Shown: positions 30,001 through 33,000 of the stretch, piece by piece | How positions within the stretch are numbered: the first letter of the stretch is position 1 | How the letters are laid out: every line of letters begins with the position of its first letter | DNA from: Sphingobacteriales bacterium | GTDB lineage: Bacteria; Bacteroidota; Bacteroidia; Chitinophagales; UBA2359 | Direction of reading: 5' to 3' | Length of the DNA stretch: 64,000 bases | Assembly (NCBI GenBank): GCA_016706405.1 | Contig: JADJJT010000002.1 | Span: forward strand, 569,445 to 633,444 | Program-made: the position numbers

Positions 30001-33000
30001 TGCTTAAAAATGCAACCCATTTGCAGTCGGGCGAAAACCGGGCGGCTACATCAATAAAATCGCCTTTGGTGAGCGATTGGGTTTTACCAGTTTTAACCTC
30101 GATGAGTTGCAAATTACAATATTTTTTTTCGGTTTTTTTGTCAATACGGTTCAAAGCATATACTACTTTTTTCCCTGATGCCGAAAAATGGCAACCCGAT
30201 ATGGTTTGCAATTTGTATAAATCTTTTAGTTTCATTTTTGGTAGTTGGTTGTTTTTTTCTATCGCCTAAAATTAGGAATTAGTTATGATAAAAACAAATT
30301 TTGACTTCCGTGTAATTTTTAAAAACCCGCCCAAAATAAAAAATCCGGATAGAAAGCATTTTAAAGCCTCTATCCGGATGTTTAGTTTTAGTAAAAATGA
30401 AATTTATTTAAGCCATACCTTCCCAAAGTCAAAAGAACTGTTAATTGCAACTCAATATGTATTTAAAATTATCTTGCATTTTTTTAGTACTGCTTTATTG
30501 CCATTTCTAACCTCGATTTAACGGTATCGGCAAGCCTTAATGGTGCTATAACCGCAACCATATCGGCATACGAAAGTATTAACCTTTCTAACTCGTAGTT
30601 GATAATTACGTGCAGGCTTATTTTTAAGGTATTTTCGTCTATCCATTTCGATTTTTGCGAACCATGCAAGGGCTTGGTCTCCATGTATTTTCCTGTTCTG
30701 CCTTTAAAGTGCAACACTACTTGTTCGGGTTCGGCATTGTCGGGTTTGGTAACGCCGATTATGTCTTCAAAATACTCCTGCCAGTCTATTTTATTGTTTT
30801 TTTGATACGCCCCTTTTGTTTCCTCAACAGATACAATGCGGTCTATAGCCAAATTCCAGTCGTGTTTTTTCTTTTCCGGATTATAGCCAAATAAAAACCA
30901 GCGACTATTATATTGTTTTAAAAAATAGGGGTGTAGCCGAACCTCAAAAGGAATATCATTTTCAAAGGGCTGATAACTAATGGCAAGTACTTTTTTATAG
31001 AAAATGGCATTATACAATTGCCCAAGGTGCTCAATACCTTTTAGGTACTGGTTGCTGTCGAACTCCATAATAGTAGTGGGCATTTCATCAATAGCCATTC
31101 CTTGTTGCAGTTTAGGCACCAGCTCATTTACCCATTCAAATTGTGGCATACCCTTAAACTGCGAAAGTATGCCCACCGCAGCCTTTAACTGGTTAATTTC
31201 TACTTCGTTCAAAGGCATATTATTAATATAAAACGACATGTCGGCGTAGCGATAGTACACTTTTTTGCCAAACCTGTGCCTTGCCAAATCAATGCTCCAG
31301 CCTTCTTTACTTTCCATGAAGGCAATATCTTCAAATAGCTGCCTTCGGCTGATGCCGTTCGATTCCGGATCTATTTCAAGCAAGATATTTTCACATTCGG
31401 CAATCAAATCATCAATAAAATACCTTCTTCCCGGATTTCTGAAGCAGTTATCCAATACTTTGTAGCGTATAAGTGCATTTTTATTTGTAGCCATAGTGTT
31501 CTTGTTTTTTATGGTGCGGCGGGGGGGTAATTTTTGTAAATATGGGCAGAGAAGAACCCCAAGGGTTCAAACGTTTGTAGAACAGGTTGTAGGGGGGTTT
31601 TATACGACCCTGTCGGGGTCGAACCTTTTATTCTGTAGGGTTTTTCTATAAACATAAAACCCCTTCGGGGTTGGTTTGATTGGTTTTGTTTTAATTAAAT
31701 AGTGCAGCAGTTGGCGCAAAATTAATTTAAAATAATTACTTTTGTGCAGCTCTACTGCATAGTTAGATGATTACTTTGCACTCTGTTCTTTGAAAGCCTG
31801 CTACACGATATTGAATTGTGCCAACTGGAATGAATCGGTTGGTGTTCTCCGTTTCATCGGAGTATGAATGTTTTATCGGTAATTTGTTAGCTCTCGTCTG
31901 ACAGATTAAATGATACGATAATATATTAATTATTATTTCTATACATACACAAAGAATACAGCAGCAGGCTTCATTGAACCTATTTAAAAAAGTGAAACCA
32001 GCGCAAGAACATATAGACCGTATTAAAACTGCCTTTGAAAAAATGCAGTCGAAAGAAGATTTACTTCGTTTGTTAAACGAGGTAAAACCCCTTATTTATG
32101 GAAAAAAAACGGTTCCGTTTGCTTTGAAACAACTGACCTGGCACGCCAACCCTAAATTGGGTGGCAAAAGGTATGAAGCCTTTCACATCAAAAAAAAATC
32201 TGGGGCAGACCGAAGCATACACGCGCCGGTAAAAGGGTTAAAAGCATTGCAAAAAACGCTGGCGCTTATACTTCAGGCTGTTTTTGAACCGCATAATGCG
32301 GCAACGGGTTTTGTTTGGGAAAGGTCAATTGTGGACAATGCTAAACTGCATGTTGGCAGTAATTATGTGTATAATATAGACCTGAAAGATTTTTTTCAGA
32401 GTATAGACCAGGCAAGGGTATGGAAAACCCTGCAACTAAAACCCTTCAATTTGAATGAGACTGCTACGGAAAAACCTTTTTCTATGGGGTGGGGGGATTT
32501 TCAAAAAAATTATCTGAAAACAAAAAAGCCTGTAAAGTTTTATAAGGGCAAGGGAAGGGTATTCGTCAAAACACCTTTGGGTCGTCCCATTCATATGTCA
32601 AACAATTTTAACGCTGAAAAAGATGCTTATGTATTGCAGGCTGGCAGTTCATTAAGAACCCAAAAAGGTAAATCTTTAAAAAACACCCTTTGGTTGGTAA
32701 ATAAAATACCGGATACAAGCCGGTTGGGAATAGCCAATATTATCGCCTCGCTGTGCTGCACCGAAATGGAAGTGGAGCGAAAAAACGAAGCAGGCGAATG
32801 GGAAAAAGTTAAACGAAATGTATTGCCACAGGGCGCGCCTACTTCGCCAGTTATAACAAATATAGTATGCCAAAAACTCGATTACCTTCTTACAGGAGTA
32901 GCCAAACGTTTCAGGCTAAAATACAGCCGTTATGCCGACGATATTAGTTTTAGCTCTAAACACAATGTTTACAAACCGGGTAGCGAATTTATAATAGAAT

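Follow-up and report, generated by a model that had tools for sequence, protein, structure and literature searches.

What is the hairpin-rich segment that lies directly 5′ of a reverse transcriptase (RT) gene in the genome of a Sphingobacteriales bacterium (Bacteroidota; assembly GCA_016706405.1, contig JADJJT010000002.1)? Within the window analyzed here, the whole stretch of 64,000 nucleotides (nt) from position 569,445 to 633,444 of that contig, an initial annotation had proposed an msr-msd, the RNA of a retron: a terminal a1/a2 inverted repeat, four hairpins between its arms, a −7-like promoter box in front, and an RT start directly behind. All of these elements are present in the sequence, with some coordinates one base off. 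We put the probability at roughly 80% that window positions 31785–31979 encode an msr-msd RNA belonging to a type XI-like retron, with the TXI_C2like lineage of Bacteroidota as its most likely placement. Two lines of evidence support the proposed retron layout, a conserved and covarying RNA on the RT strand and a retron-clade RT behind it.

Profile matches identify the downstream open reading frame (31992–34526, plus strand) as a retron-clade RT. Retron RT models fill the first 25 places among its PADLOC matches, led by RT-Protease_XI (8e-99, 329.9 bits), RT-TIR_XII (9.4e-94, 313 bits), and RT-Toprim_I-C (8.2e-89, 296.8 bits). Retron models of NCBIfam match at 2e-80 to 1.6e-52, Pfam recognizes RVT_1 (3.9e-22), and of the 15 PDB sequence matches 14 go to retron RTs known by name (Ec67, Ec86, Ec78, Ec83, and Eco8 among them), the weakest of the 15 carrying a generic name. 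DRT and group II models stay far below their cut-offs (Drt2 1.5e-7, Drt3a 7.3e-7, Drt4 6.7e-5, group II 2.1e-16), and the upstream segment has no match to group II intron RNA in Rfam. Across an alignment of the window RT with 20 homologues (A1), N122, A123, and H126 of the retron-specific NAxxH motif, V370, T371, and G372 of VTG, likewise retron-specific, and the YADD residues Y320-A321-D322-D323 are invariant, as is an H-box-like H531-x-P533. The C-terminal region (amino acids, aa, 531–849) matches Pfam PF22561, a "histidine kinase domain observed in conflict contexts" (HisKin-conflict), at 8e-62 (210 bits, cut-off 27); Pfam found no protease domain in the protein. The reading frame is intact when compared with L081, a close homologous locus. 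The segment had been described as abutting the RT start, and it does adjoin the gene; the start itself is most likely GTG 31992 (844 aa), as set by A1 and by an identical 844-aa database protein (P0001), and not TTG 31974, to which the frame remains open, so that the RNA adjoins rather than overlaps the RT gene.

The segment is also more stably folded than shuffled sequence. From 31785 to 31980 it reaches −58.3 kcal/mol vs. −38.0 ± 4.0 for dinucleotide shuffles (z = −5.1; 0/200 shuffles as good), and the minimum-energy fold holds a1/a2 together with all four proposed hairpins. Taken alone, the a1/a2 repeat is weak single-sequence evidence. Its core, AAGCCTGCT (31794–31802), is the perfect complement of AGCAGGCTT (31963–31971), and this 9-bp repeat is unremarkable, ranking 23rd among 27 similar-sized inverted repeats in a scan of 600 nt.

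Comparison among homologous loci shows that the structure is conserved as RNA. A scan for related RTs, restricted to one genome per species, yielded 80 loci, most of which carry Bacteroidota names. Metagenome-assembled genomes labeled Rhizobium (L009), Gammaproteobacteria (L019), Flexilinea (L067), and Bacilli (L078) are also among the RT carriers; mis-binning or horizontal transfer could explain them. Regions 5′ of homologous RTs, compared with blastn and MAFFT, show strong noncoding conservation in three blocks. In an alignment of 27 full-length homologous upstream sequences (A2), RNAalifold recovers a consensus of a1/a2 and two internal hairpins, P2 and P3, in which 23/34 pairs have changes on both sides. 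Extending the terminal helix outward gave a model of 39 pairs, which we scored by counting pairs in the 27 sequences: 94.4% of cells are paired, vs. 28–46% when the partner strand is slid by 1–3 columns. Covariation among homologous upstream regions, which the initial annotation had named as one way to check it, is evident. Counted without phylogenetic correction, like all of our pair and covariation figures, 24 of the 39 pairs are compensatory vs. 11.2 ± 1.8 in shuffles, and 0/500 shuffles match the real alignment on any of five measures. The alignment is unreliable in the variable region.

A covariance model extends this evidence beyond the aligned sequences. Fixed-pattern anchors that allowed substitutions only had found the RNA in only 18 sources, a low yield due to indels, and were replaced by a covariance model of the 5′ half of the RNA (R1), searched over 1.08 Mb made up of the window and 85 loci. 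R1 gives 54 matches in 54/86 sources, one per locus, all on the RT strand and 190–430 nt upstream of the RT match; the single match in the window spans 31785–31885 (84.4 bits, E = 8e-14). Cultured strains with an R1 match include Mucilaginibacter antarcticus KCTC 52232 (L011), Algoriphagus taiwanensis JCM 19755 (L014), Pedobacter heparinus S10_4.1 (L022), Mucilaginibacter rubeus (L035), and Flavobacterium sp. RSSA_27 (L042). The matches include loci whose RT similarity spans the RT domain only, and therefore the RNA travels with the RT and not with the kinase fusion. For 22 R1 loci outside the model alignment, we searched the interval from the R1 match to the RT for a sequence complementary to the first 24 nt. 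It is present in 21/22, ending from a few to ~200 nt before the RT match (usually within 50 nt), with pairing energies of −18 to −34 kcal/mol that lie 3.4 to 8.3 standard deviations below those of shuffled a1 (z −3.4 to −8.3). The a1/a2 cores differ widely among these out-of-sample loci (e.g., GAATGCTCGCT/AGCGAGTATTC and AAACCGTAGT/ACTACGGTTT) and remain complementary, a variation that is itself covariation.

In window coordinates, with all features on the plus strand, the terminal helix P1 joins a1 (GTTCTTTGAAAGCCTGCTAC, 31785–31804) to a2 (GCAGCAGGCTTCATTGAAC, 31961–31979) by 17 pairs, a pairing found by pair counts, by RNAalifold, and in the out-of-sample loci. The helix first annotated around the perfect 9-bp core is thus real and longer than had been stated. 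Over the 27 sequences P1 is 92.7% paired, with compensatory changes at 8 pairs; the window copy has one bulged A, a U-U/U-U internal loop, and an A-C mismatch peculiar to it. The first of the four annotated hairpins, CACGAT-attga-ATTGTG (31804–31820), did not hold up: its arms are 62.8% paired, which is the level of shuffles (310/500 as good), it is not conserved, and we dropped it from the model. By the pair counts, this segment instead forms a 4-bp extension of a1/a2 beside an invariant G. This extension, P1b, pairs UAUU (31809–31812) with AAUA (31955–31958) and is 100% paired in the 27 sequences, with UAUU/AAUA switching to UUUU/AAAA, AAUU/AAUU, or CAUU/AAUG; in seven UUUU loci outside A2 the 3′ partner is AAAA or AAAG in 7/7.

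The other three hairpins fared better. CCAAC...GTTGG is the base of the conserved msr hairpin P2 (GCCAACUG ... CGGUUGGU, 31820–31843), whose base helix (31820–31827 with 31836–31843) is 100% paired with 3/8 pairs compensatory and differs in sequence at equal positions in distant loci. The distal arm of P2, present in most homologues, is deleted in the window and in L028. CTCCG-tttcat-CGGAG corresponds to P3, a short msr hairpin (31844–31865, strands 31844–31851 and 31858–31865) that is 96.3% paired, with compensatory changes in 8/8 pairs. The long TTATCG...CGATAA hairpin extends to 31867–31927 as P4, an msd-like hairpin whose top varies and whose base is conserved. In most homologues a long hairpin, unrelated in its top sequence, starts from a common AAUGUUUC, and support for the base helix AAUGUUUC/GAAAUAUU is moderate (79% paired vs. 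30–54% when slid; five compensatory pairs). An AU-rich spacer of 30–100 nt follows 3′ of the long hairpin. Overall, covariation establishes a1/a2 with P2, P3, and P1b as RNA structure, and does so in part for the msd-template portion (P4 and spacer).

Where would reverse transcription begin? The 2′-OH that primes synthesis in retrons belongs to a conserved G at the inner a1/a2 end, and copying proceeds toward the RNA 5′ end (Mestre et al. 2020, PMC7736814). Because of its position and conservation, and following this mechanism, we regard G31813 as the best candidate for the branching G. It belongs to an invariant UUGA motif, is the first base 3′ of P1b, is G in 54/54 covariance-model matches, and faces G31954, the best candidate for the first templated base, across the helix end. 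Immediately behind the main a1 helix there is no conserved G; a G atop that helix was considered as the branching G and rejected, being A in the window, L029, and L013 and covarying with its partner. G31954 is the last base of a near-invariant unpaired CAUAAACAAAG, within the near-invariant unpaired CAUAcACAAAG (31944–31954) that is conserved as CATAAACAAAG in the 27 loci and in most distant loci. From its place at the end of P1b, we infer that 31944–31954 is the first templated segment, which gives CTTTGTGTATG as the predicted 5′ end of the msDNA (multicopy single-stranded DNA).

The following working is proposed. Transcription would start ~7 nt after the −7 box, under a palindromic operator that overlaps the promoter and presumably serves a WYL repressor, and the transcript would run on into the RT gene, so that RNA and RT are co-transcribed. 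The RNA ends pair, as covariation shows, through the 17-bp a1/a2 helix and the 4-bp P1b; P2 and P3 would be the msr part that the RT binds, and P4, with its variable top, would form the msd template together with the AU-rich spacer. Priming from the 2′-OH of invariant G31813 at the end of P1b, the RT would start at G31954 and copy leftward across the spacer and P4. The resulting msDNA would begin CTTTGTGTATG, and the predicted 5′ end of the debranched product is CTTTGTTTATG. Copying would stop near a conserved AUGAAUG (31864–31870), leaving a branched RNA-DNA.

Several observations weigh against the retron reading. One concerns P4. Classical msDNA stems are stable as DNA. P4 is stable as RNA and weak as complementary DNA (cDNA): the window hairpin folds at −15 kcal/mol as RNA (z = −3.1) vs. 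−2.2 kcal/mol for its cDNA complement (z = +1.3), and across the family z averages −1.8 as RNA vs. −1.0 as cDNA. The cDNA folds poorly because the stem uses many G-U pairs. This is the main structural caution on how much of the region is copied, and since the predicted cDNA is no more stable than shuffles, we do not claim a stable msDNA hairpin. G31813 lies 9 nt past the main a1 helix, and its placement depends on the 4-bp P1b. A further point is that UUCUUUG (31786–31792) in the 5′ leader is complementary to CAAAGAA (31950–31956), where templating is predicted to start, a possible alternative conformer. The two are paired in 98.4% of cases across the 27 loci without covariation; both are invariant, and because of this and because their pairing crosses P1 and P1b, it was kept out of the model. 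The window copy lacks the distal P2 arm and has the A-C mismatch in a1. An Rfam search of the segment returned no relevant family at E ≤ 1. Finally, the available account of the lineage is purely computational (Toro 2026, bioRxiv 10.64898/2026.05.14.725207).

In many distant loci, CAAAGAA(C) doubles as the distal end of a2, so that the motif occurs twice; it may point to an alternative conformer, or reverse transcription may make use of the repeat.

Could the same structure instead be a 5′ leader that belongs to the RT mRNA and is never copied into DNA, controlling translation or stability, or binding the RT or the WYL protein for autoregulation? Its position would suit such a leader, as the RNA lies directly before the RT start codon and its terminal helix, ending at 31979, stops 12 nt short of GTG 31992; the start codon itself, however, is not sequestered. 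The long hairpin is apparently selected as RNA and not as DNA, an alternative pairing of UUCUUUG would suit a switch, and the lineage has no reported msDNA, all of which fit a leader. On the other side, retron RTs need a cognate msr-msd RNA, and this RT, its YADD, NAxxH, and VTG motifs all intact, is typical of retrons. Paired ends, hairpins conserved in the 5′ part, a long hairpin that varies, and an invariant G at the helix end make up the layout of a retron and have no obvious reason in a plain leader, which we therefore hold to be an unlikely explanation.

A template RNA copied in a non-retron way, by DRT2-like repeated or rolling-circle synthesis or by DRT9/AbiK-like protein-primed synthesis of homopolymers and without 2′-OH priming from a branching G, appears quite improbable. 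DRT models match the RT very weakly (Drt2 1.5e-7, Drt3a 7e-7, Drt4 7e-5, vs. 2e-80 for retron models), and all profile and PDB searches place the RT among retron RTs. Some features do suit this alternative: the conserved unpaired CAUAAACAAAG beside the helix end resembles a defined template start, the repetition of CAAAGAA at the distal a2 end in many loci would provide what template jumping needs, namely repeats flanking the template, and a fused kinase domain is unusual in a retron. The idea that a functionless inverted repeat and hairpins arose by chance in AT-rich intergenic DNA can draw on the 9-bp repeat being one of 27 comparable ones in 600 nt, and is already refuted by the fold (z = −5.1) and by conservation and compensatory changes across dozens of loci, leaving it a negligible chance.

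Promoter and regulator sequences lie upstream. The −7-like Bacteroidota box TTACTTTG (31771–31778, plus strand) was correctly annotated, and its position is conserved across homologues, 6–7 nt upstream of an invariant GTTCTTTG that opens a1. Because this spacing is conserved, the box suggests a transcription start at ~31785, at or near the first base of a1. Over positions −42 to −24 of the predicted promoter lies an operator-like palindrome, TGTGCAG-N5-CTGCAtA (31743–31761), with one mismatch to TGTGCAG-N5-CTGCACA, which is conserved in the upstream alignment. In 14 loci an exact copy stands upstream of the RNA at the equivalent position, and L004 and L036 have an exact copy ~5 kb downstream of the RT start. 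The pattern has two matches in the window vs. 0.09 expected by chance; the second (38305–38323, two mismatches) stands in front of a PIF1/TBP-TOTE helicase gene, and a single regulator may therefore serve both the retron and the TOTE-type module next to it.

The regulator in question would be the divergently transcribed WYL + WCX protein encoded at 30484–31494 on the minus strand (Pfam WYL 7.6e-10, WCX 1e-6), whose gene is intact, has the same position in L081, L083, and L084, and encodes a protein 84.5% identical to that of L081. WYL proteins are known as regulators of defense operons, and because of what is known of them the palindrome is the presumed binding site of this one. The spacer between the WYL gene and the retron promoter contains G+C-rich terminator-like hairpins (31605–31621 and 31658–31672) and a 10-nt perfect inverted repeat (31594–31603 with 31654–31663). 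It is ~100 nt longer in the window than in L081.

Close homologues share a gene order: the divergent WYL gene, the RNA, the RT-HisKin gene (814 aa), a gene for a 227-aa protein, and one for an iREC + receiver protein (584–601 aa), followed by DUF3127, a PIF1 helicase with TBP-TOTE, and an S1CSD-TOTE protein. In the window the iREC + receiver protein is encoded at 36278–38077 on the plus strand (Pfam iREC 2.1e-18), and in 49 loci an orthologue follows the RT gene. The receiver assignment draws on a Response_reg match of 26.9 bits, below the 30.2 cut-off, on weak receiver matches in PDB and NCBIfam at aa 314–415, and on receiver-type acidic, Ser, and Lys residues seen by eye in the translation (YIDDE, ILDF, VLSAT, IIKES). 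The C-terminal ~200 aa form a helical domain that has no Pfam, NCBIfam, or PDB sequence match and carries an RNxxxH motif (KKRNGFIHN in the window) kept in 17/19 aligned orthologues. This motif is typical of HEPN RNases, and we call the domain HEPN-like because of the conserved motif alone. The iREC + receiver protein is the presumed effector.

The operon copy in the window is decaying. A homologue of the 227-aa gene lies 3′ of the RT (34530–36281, plus strand) and is disrupted: tblastn with the L081 protein places aa 1–65 at 34530–34724 (frame 3), aa 68–113 at 34730–34867 (frame 2), and aa 113–227 at 35934–36278, so that a frameshift near 34727 and a ~1.07-kb insertion (34868–35933) make it a pseudogene. 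The intact protein has no significant family in Pfam or PDB searches. The insertion holds three short minus-strand reading frames (35093–35293, 35382–35564, and 35595–35747) that look like pieces of a transposase. Within 38078–40551, compared with L081, DUF3127 is absent between the receiver gene and the helicase, and the helicase homologue changes frame near 38441 (aa 1–27 at 38361–38441 in frame 3, aa 29–729 at 38446–40548 in frame 1). The window RNA and RT look intact; because the gene directly after the RT is broken, the defense system as a whole is probably not functional here. The value of the window itself is mainly one of annotation. In L081 (1–6528) and L083 (1–6586) the retron sits in a defense island, with a Piwi-domain (prokaryotic Argonaute-like) gene directly beyond WYL and a McrBC or type I restriction-modification system further out.

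Because the RT bears a histidine-kinase domain and the operon encodes a receiver protein with a HEPN-like tail, the RT-msDNA complex would most likely act as a sensor from which disturbance by a phage is passed by phosphotransfer to an RNase effector. Tentatively, and with considerable doubt, we suggest a phosphorelay retron that does not restrain a toxin directly, in which RT-msDNA controls the fused kinase, phage interference makes the kinase begin or cease to phosphorylate the receiver, and the HEPN-like RNase, thereby switched on, brings about abortive infection, with the shared WYL operator tying in the PIF1/TOTE module. If true, such coupling would connect reverse transcription with an immune effector in a novel manner. 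In the literature searched, coverage of which was incomplete, we found no description of a phosphorelay-coupled retron and no paper discussing an RT-histidine-kinase retron or PF22561/PF22563.

How does the element compare with known systems? With classical retrons such as Ec86 (type II-A), for which an RT-msDNA structure has been solved, it shares a homologous RT (5.6e-27 to the Ec86 RT chain), the order msr-msd-RT on one strand, and a terminal a1/a2 around msr hairpins and a long msd hairpin. It departs from them in that an internal loop interrupts a1/a2 ahead of the candidate branching G, that a long AU-rich spacer and an invariant unpaired stretch of 11 nt separate the msd hairpin from a2, and that the msd stem is rich in G-U pairs and weak as DNA. 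The Ec86 effector is a nucleoside deoxyribosyltransferase-like toxin, in place of which kinase and receiver domains are found here. Fusion of a C-terminal functional domain to the RT recalls type XII (RT-TIR) and type I-C/Ec67 (RT-Toprim), which also provide the next-best RT profiles. Matches to their NCBIfam models fall under the curated cut-offs, however (NF042941 2e-80, 270.8 vs. 600 bits; NF038237 1.7e-68, 231.5 vs. 450 bits), and the domain fused here is a signaling kinase, not a direct toxin. Like the HEPN-associated type IX (Mestre et al. 2020, PMC7736814), the element has a HEPN-type RNase as its presumed killing module; unlike type IX, the HEPN-like domain stands behind iREC and receiver domains in a separate protein and has no Pfam match, and the RT belongs to a different clade.

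Type XI was defined as an RT fused to a trypsin-like protease, and no recognizable noncoding RNA was reported for it (Mestre et al. 2020, PMC7736814). The best RT profile is RT-Protease_XI (8e-99), by PADLOC profile score only and close to its neighbors (XI 329.9, XII 313, and I-C 296.8 bits), and the element, like type XI, is a single reading frame of an RT with a C-terminal fusion. The protease was looked for and is absent, a HisKin-conflict domain standing in its place, which sets the element apart from canonical type XI retrons; it also differs in having a clear RNA. Type XI was among the retron types without an RNA partner in 2020 (PMC7736814), and the first computational proposal of one came with the 2026 preprint. 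That preprint (Toro 2026, bioRxiv 10.64898/2026.05.14.725207) describes TXI_C2like as a Bacteroidota-only, WYL-associated, protease-less type XI-like lineage, the RT of which has NAxxH, VTG, and "a variable C-terminal extension", with WYL within ±2 genes, and proposes an upstream RNA of three stem-loops flanked by a1/a2 with 25 pairs, 14 of them covarying. Its Table S2 names HisKin-conflict, iREC, and WYL among the neighbors of typeXI candidates and lists as typeXI two of the assemblies in our set, CADAKX01 (L058) and CACYZT01 (L065), of which L065 carries the RNA.

The element studied here agrees with that description in several respects. Its relatives are mostly Bacteroidota, its RT is protease-less with NAxxH, VTG, and a C-terminal extension, WYL lies at position −1, and P2, P3, and P4 inside a1/a2 make three stem-loops, so far as the two RNA models are, as we presume, the same. 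The models differ in size, with 39 pairs plus the 4-bp P1b and the P4 base here vs. 25 pairs in the preprint, and the available preprint text mentions neither P1b nor an invariant G as branching candidate nor a predicted 5′ end of the msDNA; its main part likewise neither identifies the extension as a histidine kinase nor discusses a receiver gene. Our loci suggest that what was described as the "variable C-terminal extension" of TXI_C2like RTs is in many cases a histidine kinase domain that has a receiver-domain protein as its partner. The present analysis thus confirms the RNA of a type XI-like lineage independently, from another starting point and data set, and adds a larger structural model, P1b, a candidate branching G, a predicted msDNA 5′ end, the pairing of kinase and receiver, and the damaged state of this copy. 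With a named branching-G candidate, a predicted msDNA 5′ sequence, and cultured strains that carry the element, the RNA proposal becomes testable. The element is best filed as a further member of the recently proposed TXI_C2like lineage.

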